This document shows, piece by piece, positions 22,927-30,317 of a stretch of 64,000 nucleotides of DNA. The notes under the pieces are model-generated. The model did not search any database. It was given only the letters and a program-made list of their open reading frames with translations, and had not been told where the DNA came from. The DNA is from Escherichia phage nepoznato. Made by a program: the position numbers and the translations under genes. The DNA lies in sequence record NC_052658.1, one strand, 5' to 3'. Position 1 is the first letter of the stretch; each line of letters starts with the position of its first letter.

Positions 22927-23480
22927 ACGTAGCTGTTATTGCTCAAGCTATTGATTACTATGGACGGTTTGCGGAGATGTTGGAAGTCCCTTATCTTGTA
23001 GATGCAGATATCCTTGCATATACATTACCAGAAGGTAAAGAGGATCGCCCCTTGGGGCATCCTAATGGGAAGTTTTATGTTGCCAGTGCCGAGCAATCAT
23101 TCTTGCAAATGGAAAAGGATGGCTACGAGTTTATCGCTGGTCATCCCTACATGGCCCTGACACCATGTTACCGCACAGAGGAAGTGTTGGATGATTCTCA
23201 CTTCAACATCTTCTTGAAGCTGGAGTTGATTGAGTTCTATCCCAGCTTTGGTGAAGTGAAAGAGTATGCCGAAGAAATGCGATACTTCTTCTGGACCTAC
23301 TACAAAGTCCAAACAAGAATTGTAGAAACAGAAATAGGGCTTGACGTGGAAGACATGAATGGTTTAGAATTAGGGTCATTCGGAACAAGATTGTCCCCAC
23401 AAGATCATCCATATATTTATGCAACAGCCATAGCCGAACCTCGTGCATCTATGGCAATTAACAGGAGGAATCATGATTAA
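22923..23480 (+). CDS. Hypothetical protein (185 aa)
   Basis: ORF. Confidence 0.55.
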   Translation: MNVAVIAQAIDYYGRFAEMLEVPYLVDADILAYTLPEGKEDRPLGHPNGKFYVASAEQSFLQMEKDGYEFIAGHPYMALTPCYRTEEVLDDSHFNIFLKLELIEFYPSFGEVKEYAEEMRYFFWTYYKVQTRIVETEIGLDVEDMNGLELGSFGTRLSPQDHPYIYATAIAEPRASMAINRRNHD

Positions 23481-24858
23481 TAAATTTGCCCGTAAACAGG
23501 AAGTTGCTGAAGCAGCACGTCGCGCTGGTGTGTATGACAAATTGTGTGAAGGTATTGTGAAGGTGTATGGCTGGGAGGGAGAAGATGATCCAACCTGTTC
23601 AGGTGATTTTGCAATGAACGATATGACCTTCCCATATATTTCCTACAATGTCTCCACTGGTGAAATAAACGGTGTAACCAGCACCAGTGTTGATCGTTAT
23701 CCAGACGCAGAACAAACCACAGGAGGTTACATGTTAGATTTGATTCTTAAGAAATCAGGGTTATTGGGAATCGAAGACGTTTTCGTAGATGCAGATAGTT
23801 TATCATTAGGAGATGTTGTTAAACTACTGGTAGACTTTAGGTTTGCAACAGGTAAAAGCTTCTGGAAGCCAGAAGATGCTGAACGTTTGAAGACAATCGA
23901 TCCAAGTATGTATGAACTGCCACAATATAAAGATAAACAATTCCGCAAGGTTATCTTCTTTGATCGTCAAGCAGGCTTAGATGCAATGCATATTGAAGTT
24001 GGGGATTTACCACGCCCACACTCTGCTGCTACTGGTGATCGCGGCCTTGTAGAAGTCACGGCTCAAGAATTTAAAAATATGTTTGCTGCGAAATACGATG
24101 AAGCTGCGCCTGTGCCAAGTATTGAGGAGCAAGAGGAAGAACAGTTTGTAGCGGAAGATACTGCATTTGAATATCTGCCGAACACAGGTGTTATGCCTTC
24201 GGAAGATTTCGTGCAGGTTCGCTTCAACAATGGTCAAACAGATGTTGCTAAGGGAACAGTGTTCACTTGGAATATCGACAATCTGGAAGAGTGGGCGATT
24301 AAAGAATACTTCATTCTCCCGCGCACGGCAAAATACAACTATAATAATGGTGGACACCGCCCTTGTGGTGGTCACGTAGAAGTTCTCTTTCGTGACGGAA
24401 CTACGGATAGTGGATCGGCTACGCATTTCACTTGGGGTCATGTTGGATATGATCGGGATATTGTTGGTTGGCTTCCAACTAACAACCCTAAACCACGTTA
24501 CCGTAAGCCTCGTAAGAAGCCTCCGGTAGGTAAGAAGAGTGTCGTTCGTGTCCTCTACACTACGCAACAGACCTACACATTTAAAAATGTGGTAGACGTG
24601 CAAGTAACCGAGGAGCGAGTTTATATCCAATATGATCGTGAAGTTACAGAGGGTATCAAAGAATCGGTTACTACCGAAATTGAAAATAAGCTTGTTATGG
24701 CAATCATTGTGGAAGAAAGTAAAGTAGAGAACGGTAAAGCCTATACTGTTCGTGATAGCTTCTTGCGTAATATCGATGGAACCTGGGATTACAATGGACA
24801 CGATGGGACCGCTGTGAAGAACGGTAAGATCATGGGAAGACAATTCCTCTCCAAATGA
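23473..24858 (+). CDS. Hypothetical protein (about 461 aa); start moved to MINKF
   Basis: RBS AGGAGG before ATG at 23473. Confidence 0.55.
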   Translation: MINKFARKQEVAEAARRAGVYDKLCEGIVKVYGWEGEDDPTCSGDFAMNDMTFPYISYNVSTGEINGVTSTSVDRYPDAEQTTGGYMLDLILKKSGLLGIEDVFVDADSLSLGDVVKLLVDFRFATGKSFWKPEDAERLKTIDPSMYELPQYKDKQFRKVIFFDRQAGLDAMHIEVGDLPRPHSAATGDRGLVEVTAQEFKNMFAAKYDEAAPVPSIEEQEEEQFVAEDTAFEYLPNTGVMPSEDFVQVRFNNGQTDVAKGTVFTWNIDNLEEWAIKEYFILPRTAKYNYNNGGHRPCGGHVEVLFRDGTTDSGSATHFTWGHVGYDRDIVGWLPTNNPKPRYRKPRKKPPVGKKSVVRVLYTTQQTYTFKNVVDVQVTEERVYIQYDREVTEGIKESVTTEIENKLVMAIIVEESKVENGKAYTVRDSFLRNIDGTWDYNGHDGTAVKNGKIMGRQFLSK

Positions 24859-24866
24859 TAAAACTT

Positions 24867-24893
24867 AAAGGCGCACTTTGCGCCTTTTTTGAT
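24867..24893 (+). terminator. Rho-independent terminator AAAGGCGCA-CTTT-GCGCCTTTTTT
   Basis: Direct reading. Confidence 0.7.
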
Positions 24894-24961
24894 TTCCCTC
24901 AAAGCTTTTTTCGGTTGAAAGAGGTAGAATAATAGTTCTACTCACAAAATAAGGATTAATA

Positions 24962-25843
24962 ATGAAAGATTTGTACCAAGATGTTTTTTCTTTTTTAGAT
25001 CGCACTTCAGAAACATACACTAGAGAGAATGCAAACAAACCTTCCCACCTTGTTAACACGCACAGGGATCTCTTGGCGGGGATTTTAAGCAAACATATGG
25101 CAATGACACAGATACTGCCAAAAAACTTGTCAGAATGGCATACAGAAGGTTTTGGACATATTCACGACTTGGATTATCTGCTCTCTCCTCTTACAAACTG
25201 TTGTCTTGTTAATTATCAAGATATGTTAGAGAATGGTTTTAAGATCGGTGCTGCACAGATAGAAAAACCAAAATCTATTGGAGTAGCTACTACAGTGCTA
25301 ACTCAAATCATCCAAGCTGTTGCCTCCAGTCAGTATGGAGGTCAGACGTGTGCGCACATTGATAAAGGTCTTAGTCCTTATGTTGAAGCCAGTTTCCTTA
25401 AAAACATGGAGATAACCAAACGTCGCTACGGTTGTTATGCAAGGAAAGAAGCCCTAGAAATGACCGAACAAGATGTATATGACGCTATGCAAACTCTTTT
25501 GTATCAGGTTAACACTTTAATGAGTGTTAATGGACAATCTCCTTTTATTACAATCAGTATGGGTCTGGATACCTCTGTTTTTGGCAGAATGATCACAGCT
25601 AACTATCTTAAAGTGCATAGTAACGGTCTAGGTAAAGATCATGTAACGCCTGTATTCCCTAAAGTTATTTTCTTTTTACAAGAAGGTGTTAACATGAAAC
25701 CTAGTGATCCTAACTACGACCTTAAGCAACAAGCTTTGGCATGTTGTGCTGATCGTATTTATCCAGATTTTATTTCTGTTCCTTTGAACAAAGAAGTTAC
25801 GGGATCAGCAGATGGTACCGTTACGAGTATGGGTAAACTATAA
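24962..25843 (+). CDS. nrdD: Anaerobic ribonucleoside-triphosphate reductase, N-terminal portion
   Basis: Continuity with 26575-27546, which carries the glycyl-radical C-terminus; combined length about 616 aa. Confidence 0.65.
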   Translation: MKDLYQDVFSFLDRTSETYTRENANKPSHLVNTHRDLLAGILSKHMAMTQILPKNLSEWHTEGFGHIHDLDYLLSPLTNCCLVNYQDMLENGFKIGAAQIEKPKSIGVATTVLTQIIQAVASSQYGGQTCAHIDKGLSPYVEASFLKNMEITKRRYGCYARKEALEMTEQDVYDAMQTLLYQVNTLMSVNGQSPFITISMGLDTSVFGRMITANYLKVHSNGLGKDHVTPVFPKVIFFLQEGVNMKPSDPNYDLKQQALACCADRIYPDFISVPLNKEVTGSADGTVTSMGKL

Positions 25844-26574
25844 CTGCTCATGTAAAATCTGCCTAAACGGGGGAACTCTCAACAGAGACAATCCCGTGCT
25901 AAACGTAACAGAACTCCCAACACAGAAGAAGGGGGTACTGATATGAGAAAACAAATTCGTGATTTTGAAGGGTATGAAATTGACGAGCTTGGAAATGTTT
26001 ATTGTACCAGGTATAAGGATGAAAGAATCCTTCGCTCGTGGGAAGAAATAAACACAGGATACCAACTTGTCAGAATACGTAAAAACAAGAAAACTGTTTG
26101 CTTTCGGGTGCACAGACTTGTAGCTGAAGCGTTTTTACCCAATCCAGACAATTTACCTTATGTGAAGCATAAAGGTGACAATAGGAAAGACAACAGTGTA
26201 TACAATCTTGAGTGGGGATCTTGTCCAGACAACACGCAAGAGGGTTACGATAATAACTGTTATGCTTTCTACACAAGGTGTCACAGTGTAAAAGCTACTC
26301 ATAAGGCTACTGGTGAAGTTTTTTACTTTAAAAGTCTGAGATGTTGTGCTGACGCTTTAGGGTTGGACAGAAAAAGAATATCTGCAATCTTAAAACAAGG
26401 AGCACCAAATAATTATGATTATGAGTTCTGTTACGAAATGCCTAACGACTAGCTGTGATGAATGTAGCAGCGTAGGGTGTAAGCCTATGACACCCCAAAT
26501 GGTAGACATGCTTTAAGCATGAAGATATAGTCTGATCTGCATGGTGACATGCAGCAGCACGTAATGGTGCGGGA
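25844..26574 (+). mobile_element. Intervening element splitting nrdD, carrying a homing endonuclease gene; probable group I intron (splice sites not determined)
   Basis: Endonuclease ORF sits between the two nrdD halves. Confidence 0.5.
25943..26452 (+). CDS. HNH homing endonuclease
   Basis: YEIDELGNVY, VHRLVAEAF, KHKGDNRKDNSVYNLEW, C-terminal DNA-binding module. Confidence 0.8.
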   Translation: MRKQIRDFEGYEIDELGNVYCTRYKDERILRSWEEINTGYQLVRIRKNKKTVCFRVHRLVAEAFLPNPDNLPYVKHKGDNRKDNSVYNLEWGSCPDNTQEGYDNNCYAFYTRCHSVKATHKATGEVFYFKSLRCCADALGLDRKRISAILKQGAPNNYDYEFCYEMPND

Positions 26575-27546
26575 GTGGCCTTGCGAGCCACTTTGAACAT
26601 AATGTGTAGAAGTTTCTTGTCATACTATGCAACAGAGCAAGGAGAAAAATATGATGGACGATTCAACCTTGGAGTAGTTTCTATCAACTTGCCTCTGATT
26701 GCTGCGGAAGCGAGAAGTAAAGGAGAATCTTTCACCGATCTTCTTAATAAACATATGGAGATAGCCTACGATGCTCACATGCTACGTGTAAACCGTATCA
26801 GACATACCAAAGCATCTGAAAACCCTATTCTTTTCATGGAAGGGGCTTTAGCGCGTTTAAATGCCAATGATGAAATTGGTGTTTTGTTTGAAGGTGGTTA
26901 TGCTTCTATTAGTATTGGTTATGTAGGTCTTGCCGAAGCTTTGGAAATCCTTTATCCAGAAGAAAAAGATAAAAAGGAACTTGGTAAAAACATTCTGCAA
27001 CATATGAAAGATGTGTGTGCTGTGTTTAAAGAGCGATCTAAGCTGGCATTTAGTCTCTATGGAACTCCAGCAGAATCTTTGTGCTATAAGTTTGCAACAG
27101 CTTTAAATGAAAAATACCCAGGTTTGGTAGAAAGAGACTATCTTACTAACTCTTTTCATCAACCTGTATGGTTGGTAACAAATCCTTTTGAAAAATGGGA
27201 TTATGAAGCAGGTTTTGCACAGATTAGTAATGGTGGTAACATAAGTTATGTCGAAACACCAAACTTAAAGAATAACTTAGAAGCTTTGGAGACTTTAGTA
27301 GACTACGCTTATGAACATATTCACTATTTTGGTATTAATCAGCCCGTGGATCAATGCTTTAAGTGTGGTTTTCATGGAGAATTTAAGGCAACGGCTAAAG
27401 GGTTTGAGTGTCCTGATTGTGGCAACCATGAAGAAGAAACTATTTCTGTAGTTAGACGTGTATCAGGGTATCTTTCTGCTCCTAATTCACGGCCTTATAA
27501 CAAAGGTAAAATGCAGGAAGTTTTGCAAAGGGAGAAACATCTTTGA
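26575..27546 (+). CDS. nrdD: Anaerobic ribonucleoside-triphosphate reductase, C-terminal portion (true exon start uncertain)
   Basis: CxxC...CxxC zinc site and glycyl-radical motif RVSGYL. Confidence 0.75.
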   Translation: MALRATLNIMCRSFLSYYATEQGEKYDGRFNLGVVSINLPLIAAEARSKGESFTDLLNKHMEIAYDAHMLRVNRIRHTKASENPILFMEGALARLNANDEIGVLFEGGYASISIGYVGLAEALEILYPEEKDKKELGKNILQHMKDVCAVFKERSKLAFSLYGTPAESLCYKFATALNEKYPGLVERDYLTNSFHQPVWLVTNPFEKWDYEAGFAQISNGGNISYVETPNLKNNLEALETLVDYAYEHIHYFGINQPVDQCFKCGFHGEFKATAKGFECPDCGNHEEETISVVRRVSGYLSAPNSRPYNKGKMQEVLQREKHL

Positions 27547-28013
27547 ATTTTGCAGGATATGAACCTGTAGATCTTATTAATGGTGAGGGAGTTAGGTGCT
27601 CCCTCTGGGTTAGTGGTTGTAGCCACGGTTGTCGTGGCTGTTTTAACCAGAAAGCCTGGTCTTATTCTTACGGGGAACCGTTTACTCACGAAAATGTAGA
27701 GCAAGTTTTAAAAGATTTGTCAAGACCGTTTGTAAAAGGTTTAACAATTTTAGGAGGAGAACCATTAGATCCGCAGAATATTTACAATGTTAAAAGCCTT
27801 ATAGAAAAGGTTAGAGACGTTTATGGGTCAAGCAAAGATATAATGGTGTATACAGGATATACTTTTGAGGAAGTGCCTTTATATATTAAAAATCTTGTTG
27901 ACATTATTGTAGACGGAAAGTATGAAATAAACAATCCAACTACAAAACCTTTCAGAGGGTCAGATAATCAAAGATTATGGACCAAAACGGCAAGTGGTTG
28001 GCAATCAGATTAA
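27543..28013 (+). CDS. nrdG: Anaerobic ribonucleotide reductase activating protein (radical SAM)
   Basis: CSHGCRGC motif; directly follows nrdD. Confidence 0.75.
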   Translation: MNFAGYEPVDLINGEGVRCSLWVSGCSHGCRGCFNQKAWSYSYGEPFTHENVEQVLKDLSRPFVKGLTILGGEPLDPQNIYNVKSLIEKVRDVYGSSKDIMVYTGYTFEEVPLYIKNLVDIIVDGKYEINNPTTKPFRGSDNQRLWTKTASGWQSD

Positions 28014-28026
28014 CTTAGGAGGTTTC

Positions 28027-28218
28027 ATGGTTACATATTTTGCTGTAGGAGATAGAGTAGGGACGGCAGGAGAACTGTTGAAGAACAGTGATCGGGACGT
28101 TAAGGAGATTCTTGCAACCCTTGTGGATATTTTACAAAGAAAAGAGTTGCTTTCTGATCGAGATGTTGCTAAATTACTTGATATCGGAGGAGATGAACTT
28201 CAAAGACTTCCATTTTAA
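28027..28218 (+). CDS. Hypothetical protein (about 63 aa)
   Basis: RBS TAGGAGG. Confidence 0.5.
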   Translation: MVTYFAVGDRVGTAGELLKNSDRDVKEILATLVDILQRKELLSDRDVAKLLDIGGDELQRLPF

Positions 28219-28233
28219 GTGAGGAGATAAGTA

Positions 28234-28839
28234 ATGCAACATAGTGTAGTAGTCAACATGCCGAATAGTGGGGATAAATCTTTTGGTGTCCCTGCTAAAA
28301 AAGTGTGGAAAGCCCATTTTCATCTTACTTTATCTAACGTTAGTTCTGAAGAGTTGATGAAAGCAGCTAAGATTATTGGTGCCAAATGCACAACAATTGA
28401 TTTACATCGGGATACAAAGTCTCAACGTGATCGTATGTTAACAAAGTATCAAAGCGATCTCGACACTACTTTAATGTTGCAGTGTGTAGAAAAACTTGAG
28501 AATGCAGGTTTCAATGTTGTTCGTTACAAACTGGAACGAATGTTTAAACATGTTGCCTGTGTTCTTTTCATGGATCTAAGTAAAGAAAATTATGGAGAAG
28601 TTCACATTAAGACTTCAGCAAGTGATCCCGAAGTAGAAACAAACTTCTTCCGTATTTCTTCTAATGCTGAAGAAATTGATTACCGATTTTATAATGCTCG
28701 CTTATATTCCGCAGAAGATAAGTTGCGTTTCAATGAAGCGTATGATATGCTCTTGAACAGTGGGATACAGATAAAAGGCTACCACATAGAACAAGTGGTA
28801 GTGGACAGTAATCTTAACTTAGACGCATGGTGGGCTTAA
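28234..28839 (+). CDS. Hypothetical protein (201 aa); single H-x-T-x motif (HLTL), possible 2H-phosphoesterase-like
   Basis: Weak motif only; gene context. Confidence 0.3.
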   Translation: MQHSVVVNMPNSGDKSFGVPAKKVWKAHFHLTLSNVSSEELMKAAKIIGAKCTTIDLHRDTKSQRDRMLTKYQSDLDTTLMLQCVEKLENAGFNVVRYKLERMFKHVACVLFMDLSKENYGEVHIKTSASDPEVETNFFRISSNAEEIDYRFYNARLYSAEDKLRFNEAYDMLLNSGIQIKGYHIEQVVVDSNLNLDAWWA

Positions 28840-28840
28840 T

Positions 28841-29497
28841 ATGACTATTAAACATATCTCTTTTGATGTATGGAACACACTGATCACAGCAAACTCCAAT
28901 TACGCAGACATGCGAGCCTGGACTATCGCAAAATATGGAGATATTACGGAAGTGGAAGCAAGAGCAGCTTATAAGAAGATCAAAAAGGAACTGGATAATG
29001 CAGCACTTCAAGGCAAAGCCGAGTGTGCAGCATACGCCTGGGAAAGACTTGGTTCTGAACTTGGGATAACACCTTGGAAGTCTGCAAAGCTTCGTTTCGA
29101 GTGTGAACAGTGGTTCCTTAAGTTTCCACCACACGTAGCCGTGGATCTGCCGATGTACTTGCTGTATCTTTCGGGACGTTATGATTTGAGTATTAAGAGC
29201 AATACCAACTTTATATCAGGGGATATCCTGCGTCGTGCTTGTAAGTTTGATAGTTGGAATTGTTTTGAGTTCACCCATTTCTCGGATGAAGCTTTACTTT
29301 GTAAACCAGATCCGCGATTCTTTGCTCGCACGCTCACATATTCTCCGATCCCTCTGTTAGGGCACGAAGTATTGCACGTAGGCGATAGTGAAGAATATGA
29401 TGGAAAATGTGTTGACTTAGGATTTAACTTCTGTCATATTAAGAACCCTAACGACTTACTAGAGAAACTTAAAAGAGGAGAAATTGTAAATGCGTAA
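28841..29497 (+). CDS. HAD-superfamily hydrolase-like protein
   Basis: N-terminal FDVWNTL resembles HAD motif I variant. Confidence 0.4.
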   Translation: MTIKHISFDVWNTLITANSNYADMRAWTIAKYGDITEVEARAAYKKIKKELDNAALQGKAECAAYAWERLGSELGITPWKSAKLRFECEQWFLKFPPHVAVDLPMYLLYLSGRYDLSIKSNTNFISGDILRRACKFDSWNCFEFTHFSDEALLCKPDPRFFARTLTYSPIPLLGHEVLHVGDSEEYDGKCVDLGFNFCHIKNPNDLLEKLKRGEIVNA

Positions 29498-30317
29498 TCA
29501 AACTCAAATTTTTGCAAATAAATTTGATGACCTGGAAACTGCTACTTTTGATATCCAAGATTATTCAAAATTGAAATTTGGTAGTAACCAAGCCGCGCGT
29601 CGTATGGGTAAAGAATTGGCACTTCAGTTTTTTGCTCAAGTGGCAATGAAACATATTGGGGAACAATTTGTTATCATTCCTTCTCCTTACAACCATGTGC
29701 ATAATGCTGCAACAATGATGACAGATCATTTTATTAATTACTTTAACATGTTGCAATCACAATATAATCAAGGTCGTTCAGCAGAACTGGACATTATTCA
29801 TCGTAAAGTTAGCTATATCAACGATTATGGTTTCTTGGATAAAGCTAGTCGTAAGAAACTTATTGATGGGGATACATTCTACTGCAACAAAGAATTCTGG
29901 GGTGATAAGAAGCTTGTATTCATTGATGATGTAAATATCACTGGAACGCATGAAGACAAACTGATTGAGATTCTTGATGAAAATCAAGTTAAAAATGATG
30001 TTTACTTCCTGTATTTTGCAAAATATGAAGGTAATCAAGCAGATACCGAAGCTAAACTGAATTTTAACTACATTAATACACCAGAAGCGTTTGTTAAAAT
30101 GATTAATGAAGAACGTGATGCACAGTGTCTTGTTCGTCCTATTAAATATCTTATGGGCCAAAATCATGAAGACTTCAAAATCATTCTTAGCCAATTGCCA
30201 CACTACTATGTAGAGCAACTTTTCTTCGGCTGTTTAGCTGAAGGCTACAATCGAATTGCAAAGTATACTGAAAACTTTGAATTCTTGGATCGTTACACAA
30301 AACAACACATTCTGTAA
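29490..30317 (+). CDS. Type I phosphoribosyltransferase (PRTase) fold protein
   Basis: PRPP-binding motif LVFIDDVNITGT. Confidence 0.6.
   Translation: MRNQTQIFANKFDDLETATFDIQDYSKLKFGSNQAARRMGKELALQFFAQVAMKHIGEQFVIIPSPYNHVHNAATMMTDHFINYFNMLQSQYNQGRSAELDIIHRKVSYINDYGFLDKASRKKLIDGDTFYCNKEFWGDKKLVFIDDVNITGTHEDKLIEILDENQVKNDVYFLYFAKYEGNQADTEAKLNFNYINTPEAFVKMINEERDAQCLVRPIKYLMGQNHEDFKIILSQLPHYYVEQLFFGCLAEGYNRIAKYTENFEFLDRYTKQHIL

Follow-up and report, generated by a model that had tools for sequence, protein, structure and literature searches.

The DNA analysed here, referred to as the window, is a 64,000 nt stretch of Escherichia phage nepoznato (NC_052658.1), and all coordinates are window positions on the + strand. 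The locus under study is nrdD, the gene for a class III ribonucleotide reductase (RNR), which is interrupted by an insertion that very probably represents a mobile group I intron. Three open reading frames (ORFs) follow one another at 24962..25843 (293 aa), 25943..26452 (169 aa) and 26575..27546 (323 aa). The first matches positions 1-263 of the Pfam NRDD profile (E = 6.6e-69), and the third matches positions 263-562 of NRDD (E = 8.9e-88) together with Gly_radical (E = 7.3e-28). The third ORF carries the zinc-site cysteines (CFKCG, 27355-27369, and CPDCG, 27409-27423) and the glycyl-radical motif (RRVSGYL, 27454-27474), and both features align with the chain of the T4 NrdD crystal structure (E = 9.9e-168). 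The features of a class III NrdD are therefore all present: the glycyl-radical motif, a four-cysteine zinc site, an aligned active-site cysteine and an adjacent nrdG. An earlier note on this DNA, made from its letters, had read the two outer ORFs as a class III RNR with a zinc site and an RVSGYL motif, separated by about 730 bp that encode a homing endonuclease. Both statements hold, the second because the gap measures 731 bp and its ORF matches PHROG 59 and I-HmuI.

The boundaries of the insertion were determined by comparison with the nrdD of ESCO13 (1815 nt, Phapecoctavirus), which served as the intron-less reference allele. Alignment of the joined exons (24962..25834 and 26605..27546) with an intact NrdD, a check suggested in the earlier note, gave a product of 1815 nt (604 codons) that is base-for-base colinear with the ESCO13 gene; exon 1 has no mismatches over 873 nt, and two of the 604 residues of the joined protein differ. 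The insertion proper (25835..26604) is exactly the 770-nt difference from intron-less alleles. It exceeds the gap between the ORFs because the first ORF enters it by 9 nt (AAA CTA TAA) and the third starts 30 nt inside it. The intron-less site of the ESCO13 type reads ...ATGGGTTGTCGTTCC..., and the boundary cannot be shifted because the bases flanking each end differ. The window belongs to a Phapecoctavirus-type coliphage and is 99% identical to phage nieznany in this region. In most relatives, phAPEC8 and ESCO13 among them, the match falls into two pieces that span 1815 bp, and their nrdD is therefore uninterrupted.

At the protein level the junction reads TSMG|CRSFL and falls between Gly291 and Cys292, within the conserved MGCRS motif. 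Cys292 aligns with Cys290 of T4 NrdD, the residue on which the thiyl radical of the active site has been proposed to form. The insertion brings an in-frame stop two codons past the 5' boundary, and its length (770 = 3n + 2) shifts the frame, so that nrdD needs its removal from the message. The same two properties exclude an intein or any other in-frame insertion at the protein level. Inteins are known in other phage RNR genes (PMC3653736), but here exon 2 lies in another frame, and none of the ORFs gave a Pfam match to an intein or a Hint domain at E ≤ 0.01.

Intron structure

Introns at the same position of nrdD are found in the Justusliebigvirus phages VEcB, PD06 and UAB_1, in the Vequintavirinae phages HMD-6 and 19-1-2 and in Vibrio phage F96. 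The splice sites, which the earlier note had not located, lie after U25834 (5') and after G26604 (3'). Its preference for a group I intron is borne out by these boundaries against intron-less alleles, by P1 and P10, by the core recognized by Rfam and by covariation.

The helices are listed in Table 1. P1 comprises 6-8 bp and is 100% paired in six of six aligned introns. P10 was assigned to the UGUAG at the start of exon 2, a further copy of which lies inside the P7.1 loop; in Vibrio phage F96 the same site has a wholly different, compensated P10 of 8 bp (GAUUGGCA/UGCCGAUC). The helix map shows no P2 in the window intron. The 5' half of the core (25858..25909) is close in sequence to that of the T4 nrdD intron, and an 11-nt tail that follows P9.2 ends in the terminal G26604. 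Insertion of P7.1 and P7.2 between P7 and P3' is a hallmark of subgroup IA. Hairpins corresponding to these two helices occur at 26452-71 and 26475-95, both with compensatory changes, and since they are present and P2 is absent the intron was grouped with the T4-type IA introns.

Covariation was assessed in an alignment of six introns (window, HMD-6, 19-1-2, UAB_1, T4 nrdD and Vibrio phage F96) representing five lineages. As controls, pairing partners were slid by 1-3 columns, and 500 shuffles were performed. Pairing is seen in 94.5% of the alignment cells, compared with 33-45% in the slid controls, and changes on both sides occur in 23 of the 74 proposed pairs, compared with 1-6; the observed pairing values were reached in none of the 500 shuffles. 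The compensatory changes are located in P3, P4, P5, P7, P7.1, P7.2 and P8. MAFFT misaligns the T4 and F96 introns in P6a, P9.1, P9.2 and P10; the cells that appear unpaired there are artefacts, and the pair counts are conservative.

The window was also searched with the group I family model of Rfam (RF00028, Intron_gpI; gathering score 50 bits). The model matches 26315-26554 with 39.3 bits (E = 2.9e-8 locally and 1.6e-6 over 64 kb), and its alignment takes in J6/7, P7, P3', P8, J8/7 and P9. This is the sole Rfam match at E ≤ 0.01 in the whole window; at gathering thresholds the whole window gave no match, the intron being seen with E-value thresholds only. The placement of P1/P2 by Rfam at 26315-26360, inside the ORF, was rejected as spurious, the true 5' half lying at 25835-25909. 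The score is low because the 510-nt ORF in the P6a loop splits the core. Natural copies that lack the ORF, in PD06 (290 nt, 1201-1490 of the retrieved stretch) and UAB_1 (279 nt, 1201-1479), score above the gathering value, at 70.4 and 72.5 bits, and the UAB_1 core is 98.9% identical to that of the window. The covariance-model scan that the earlier note had proposed gave a sub-threshold match for the window itself and 70-72 bits for ORF-less copies with a 99% identical core.

These results bear on an arrangement of genes in pieces, in which a free-standing HNH gene would sit within nrdD and the two halves would be translated separately and assemble into an active enzyme, as in Aeromonas phage Aeh1. 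Public records present the locus in this way. The intron-bearing records examined annotate two NrdD coding sequences (CDS) with a hypothetical protein or HNH gene, and an intron annotation is absent from those of nieznany, VEcB, PD06, UAB_1, HMD-6, 19-1-2 and F96. The nrdA-a/mobE/nrdA-b genes of Aeh1 provide a precedent (PMC3653736, PMC2988022), and the last three bases of the insertion (26602-26604) form an AUG in frame with exon 2. However, no Shine-Dalgarno sequence is visible 5' of this AUG, and the break at Gly291/Cys292 is inside a conserved motif. On the two sides of the ORF lie the parts of a complete group I core, with P1, P10 and a terminal G, and covariation supports this structure; moreover, ORF-less copies of 279-290 nt still interrupt nrdD, which a free-standing endonuclease does not explain. 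We therefore find an arrangement of this kind, which the earlier note had kept as its alternative, scarcely credible. Vibrio phage F96 likewise has an AUG in frame with exon 2 (..GAUG|UGC), which is probably a consequence of the conserved 3' end of the intron family and not a start codon.

Table 1. Features of the interrupted nrdD locus in window coordinates.
Feature	Position	Strand	Details	Evidence
nrdD exon 1	24962..25834	+	Codons 1-291, ends ...TSMG	Pfam NRDD 1-263; ESCO13 alignment
P1	25829..25851	+	Exon end AUGGGU (25829-34) with guide GCUCAU (25846-51)	U25834·G25846 wobble at 5' splice site
Predicted group I intron, IA type	25835..26604	+	770 nt; starts AAACUAUAAC, ends ...AACAUAAUG, last base omega-G	Allele comparison, RF00028, covariation
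P10 guide	25838..25842	+	CUAUA, pairs with exon 2 start UGUAG (26605-26609), 5 bp	
5' core half	25858..25909	+	P3 (25858-63), P4 (25867-71/25893-97), P5 (25877-80/25885-88); 5' strands of P6 (25898-99) and P6a (25904-09)	Helix map
Hairpin before endonuclease gene	25913..25936	+	ACUCCC/GGGGGU (25913-18/25931-36), Shine-Dalgarno AAGGGGG in 3' strand	-14.2 kcal/mol, z -3.8
Intron-encoded HNH homing endonuclease gene	25943..26452	+	169 aa, in P6a loop	PHROG 59, I-HmuI alignment
3' core half	26430..26554	+	P6a' (26430-35), P6' (26440-41), P7 (26447-51/26528-32), P7.1 (26452-56/26467-71), P7.2 (26475-80/26490-95), P3' (26501-06), P8 (26507-12/26516-21), P9 (26537-43/26548-54)	Rfam alignment, helix map
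Peripheral hairpins	26557..26604	+	P9.1 (26557-60/26567-70), P9.2 (26573-79/26587-93)	3' of Rfam model end
nrdD exon 2	26605..27546	+	Codons 292-604 and stop, begins with Cys292	Pfam NRDD 263-562, Gly_radical; T4 NrdD alignment
Co-conversion tract	26605..26642	+	First 38 nt of exon 2, identical to Justusliebigvirus alleles	
nrdG	27543..28013	+	Radical-SAM activase of NrdD; context, outside the element	Pfam Fer4_12 (E = 4.5e-42), Radical_SAM

Intron-encoded endonuclease

The ORF in the P6a loop matches the PHROG 59 family, named 'HNH endonuclease', with E = 3.8e-34, and aligns over nearly its full length (residues 3-166 of 169) with I-HmuI (PDB entry 1U3E; E = 8.7e-9). Two Pfam families are approached from below their cut-offs: HNH_3 with 22.0 bits (cut-off 24.8) and I-HmuI_NUMOD-like with 25.4 bits (cut-off 27). 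Among its relatives in the phage collection are ORFs that bear the names of the intron endonucleases I-BasI and I-KsaIII, and an HNH ORF that lies under the nrdE annotation of phage Twort; the rest of the window yielded no paralogue of the endonuclease. Residues His76, Asn88 and Asn97 align with His75, Asn87 and Asn96 of I-HmuI. Asp74 of I-HmuI, reportedly a metal ligand according to the structure paper, is replaced by lysine in the window ORF and by cysteine in F96; across the orthologues compared, this residue is K, C or D. The rates of synonymous (dS) and nonsynonymous (dN) substitution relative to the HMD-6 orthologue are 1.09 and 0.05, respectively, and the resulting dN/dS of 0.046 places the endonuclease under purifying selection.

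The last 23 nt of the ORF (26430-26452) double as P6a', P6', J6/7 and the start of P7. Because the end of the ORF is also part of the ribozyme core, the distant Vibrio orthologue likewise ends in EMPND. Upstream, the Shine-Dalgarno sequence of the ORF is contained in the 3' strand of a hairpin (Table 1), and hairpins of other sequence occupy the same place in HMD-6 and Vibrio phage F96. By masking the ribosome-binding site, such a hairpin probably prevents translation from interfering with the folding of the ribozyme, a regulatory role suggested by analogy with I-TevI, -II and -III (PMC2988022). A promoter scan of 24700-28300 returned nine sigma-70-like sites where 9.3 are expected, and no endonuclease promoter can be claimed in this interval.

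Transfer between phages

The intron of the window is 99.4% identical to that of VEcB (Justusliebigvirus), whereas identity in the flanking exons of the two phages reaches only 71.6% and 77.6%. Up to the junction, exon 1 of the window is of the Phapecoctavirus type, and a donor-type tract of 33-38 nt is found on the 3' side only. This tract differs from intron-less Phapecoctavirus alleles at ten silent positions (+4..+33), and past it exon 2 reverts to the Phapecoctavirus type. The tract variant was found in none of the intron-less alleles of the phage collection, the best contiguous match being 94.4%. Co-conversion of flanking sequence accompanies homing (PMC2988022). The one-sided tract, taken together with the identity across genera, bears the mark of homing, with co-conversion on one side, from a donor of the Justusliebigvirus type, and the allele comparison indicates that the transfer of the intron into a Phapecoctavirus nrdD was recent.

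Exon 2 starts with TGTAGA in every intron-bearing allele compared and in no intron-less allele compared, the latter starting with TGTCGT, TGCCGT or TGTAGG. With the intron-linked TGTAGA form P10 is complete, and this form may in addition shield the allele from the endonuclease. Among phages of the Phapecoctavirus type, four records (three phages) bear the intron and 61 do not. Justusliebigvirus phages comprise empty sites, full introns and two different deletions of the ORF, each of them present in several phages; the ORF-less copy of PD06 retains the last ~13 codons of the ORF. Four GenBank entries labelled 'Campylobacter phage' (C2, A150, C3 and C7; MG065655, MG065639, MG065656 and MG065658, respectively) show 74-88% identity to coliphage nrdD and intron. 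Their genome sizes are typical of rV5/phi92-like coliphages, and the host label looks doubtful.

From these data, 25835..26604 is with high confidence a mobile self-splicing group I intron of type IA, with an HNH endonuclease in P6a, in the nrdD of a Phapecoctavirus-type coliphage, and it is probably active. Three points weigh against this assignment. The Rfam score of the window itself (39.3) is below the gathering value of 50, the scores above it belonging to close relatives. The covariation comes from only six sequences, and the window sequence served as the basis for drawing the structure, giving it an advantage over the slid controls. Lastly, with lysine at the position of Asp74, just before the catalytic histidine, endonuclease activity is not assured.

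The first and last of these points would also suit a decayed intron, in which the ribozyme or the endonuclease is defunct and nrdD is a pseudogene or depends on helper functions; the T4 nrdB intron with I-TevIII is a precedent for a defunct endonuclease (PMC2988022). Decay of this kind appears quite improbable, as the sub-threshold score is accounted for by the ORF in P6a and the core helices keep their pairing through compensatory changes. Furthermore, the nrdD exons are intact, with only the two substitutions relative to ESCO13, nrdG has been kept, the endonuclease has a dN/dS of 0.046 at a dS of ~1.1 and the intron has spread recently between genera.

Proposed splicing and homing pathway

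The comparisons above show where the intron begins and ends, how it folds, what it is related to and how it was transferred. For the splicing chemistry we infer the standard group I pathway. The pre-mRNA would fold and form P1 between GCUCAU and AUGGGU, and free guanosine would attack after U25834. P10 would then form between CUAUA and UGUAG, and the freed exon end would attack after the terminal G26604. The exons would thereby be joined into a single nrdD message of 604 codons with the junction ...AUGGGU|UGUAGA... (...ACGAGUAUGGGU|UGUAGAAGU...).

The activity and target of the endonuclease are proposed by analogy with its family. When two phages infect the same cell, an I-HmuI-like enzyme would nick the intron-less nrdD of the other phage close to the insertion site. 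With the intron-bearing copy as the template for repair, the intron would then be copied in together with a short stretch of the 3' exon (homing). The regulation by the hairpin before the endonuclease gene is likewise suggested by analogy.

If this assignment is correct, closely related, cultivable coliphages hold all three stages of homing: the empty site, the intron with its endonuclease and the intron from which the endonuclease has been deleted. They form a natural series: three of roughly sixty phages of the Phapecoctavirus type bear the intron, the sister genus includes empty sites and full introns as well as two deletions of the endonuclease that arose independently, and the donor tract is mapped to within 5 nt. 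Since E. coli K-12 supports the growth of these phages, direct measurement of homing, of co-conversion and of what the intron costs would be feasible. With the intron annotated, gene counts would be put right and a single NrdD of 604 aa restored. The intron itself marks a second site of intron insertion in phage nrdD, distinct from the first, at the Cys292 codon. The element is of a known kind, this copy being unannotated, and the understanding of group I intron function is unchanged.

Neighbouring genes

Between the upstream ORF and nrdD, at 24867-24887, lies a hairpin resembling a terminator (9 bp and then a T run), and in view of it nrdD and nrdG may form a separate transcription unit. The RefSeq records of nieznany and ESCO13 give the upstream ORF (23443-24858, +; 471 aa) the name 'ribonucleotide reductase'. 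This ORF has no Pfam match, and the name appears to be unsupported. On the 3' side of nrdG, the ORF at 28841-29497 (+) is weakly HAD-hydrolase-like, and that at 29490-30317 (+) encodes a ComF-like phosphoribosyltransferase (Pfam PRTase_3, E = 2.3e-41).

Comparison with known introns and endonucleases

No description of this intron was found in the literature on Phapecoctavirus, Justusliebigvirus, phi92 and rV5, the phi92 genome paper lying outside the search. The introns at the same site share the insertion point (..MG|CRS..) and the fold with that of the window. Where they carry an HNH ORF it is in the same loop and ends in EMPND* over the core. Their identity to the window intron is 99.4% for VEcB, 85% for HMD-6 and ~72% in the core for F96. 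The NrdD of Vibrio phage F96 is only ~34% identical to that of the window, yet the same G|C site is occupied.

In Escherichia phage 19-1-2 nrdD has a second gap, ~264 nt long, further downstream (about 1932-2196 of the retrieved stretch; between alignment residues ~452 and ~444). No group I match was found in this gap at E ≤ 1, and it could be another element or a problem of assembly or frameshift. In the stretch of Vibrio phage F96 compared (1-1375), the nrdD piece 5' of the intron begins only near residue 127, with another HNH CDS ahead of it, and the annotation divides exon 2 into two CDS; at least one further insertion is probable in this nrdD. The terminase large subunit gene (terL) of rV5 (958-1236 and 2501-2580 of the retrieved stretch) contains an ORF-less group I intron (RF00028, 84.9 bits) and a second insertion that bears an HNH gene. 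The 3' end of the second insertion is 85% identical to 26524-26602 of the window (P7'-P9.2), and from this match 3' modules of introns seem to be shared between genes.

Outside the same-site family, the best DNA match is the T4 nrdD (sunY) intron, with 81% identity over the alignable pieces and ~70% over the core. It resides in the same host gene, is of the IA type without P2 and with P7.1/P7.2, and its P7, J8/7 and P9 are identical or near-identical to those of the window intron. Its Rfam score is 105 bits, and the note in the record of T4 I-TevII names its intron 'group 1A'. The guide GCUCAU is shared, pairing with AUGAGU in T4 and with AUGGGU in the window. The two introns differ in position and in cargo. 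That of T4 lies between the residues that align with 177 and 182 and has a GIY-YIG endonuclease, I-TevII, encoded 3' of P9, whereas that of the window lies at 291|292, ~115 codons downstream, and has an HNH ORF in the P6a loop. The description 'as in T4 nrdD' in the earlier note consequently fits the kinship of the ribozymes but not the site or the endonuclease.

It is conceivable, though on balance doubtful, that a single ribozyme lineage colonised two sites of nrdD with its guide unchanged (UAUGAGU| in T4 and UAUGGGU| in the window, both pairing with GCUCAU) and acquired unrelated endonucleases in different loops. If so, the two introns would preserve a natural trace of transposition into an ectopic site determined by RNA pairing, either through reverse splicing or through illegitimate homing followed by selection for splicing.

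The alignment of the endonuclease with I-HmuI from the DNA polymerase intron of Bacillus phage SPO1 extends over the N-terminal region, the HNH motif and the C-terminal NUMOD-like/helix-turn-helix region, the scores for the Pfam models HNH_3 and I-HmuI_NUMOD-like staying just below their cut-offs. Like I-HmuI, I-BasI, I-KsaIII and the HNH ORF of Twort nrdE, it is encoded in a phage gene of nucleotide or DNA metabolism. It differs from the I-HmuI group in its target gene and in the lysine that replaces Asp74 of I-HmuI, and the identity is only ~26-30%. The nrdA-a/mobE/nrdA-b locus of Aeh1 is similar in that an RNR gene is present as two ORFs around an HNH endonuclease gene. In Aeh1, however, there is no intron RNA and the halves are translated separately (PMC3653736), whereas the ORF of the window is flanked by a complete ribozyme.

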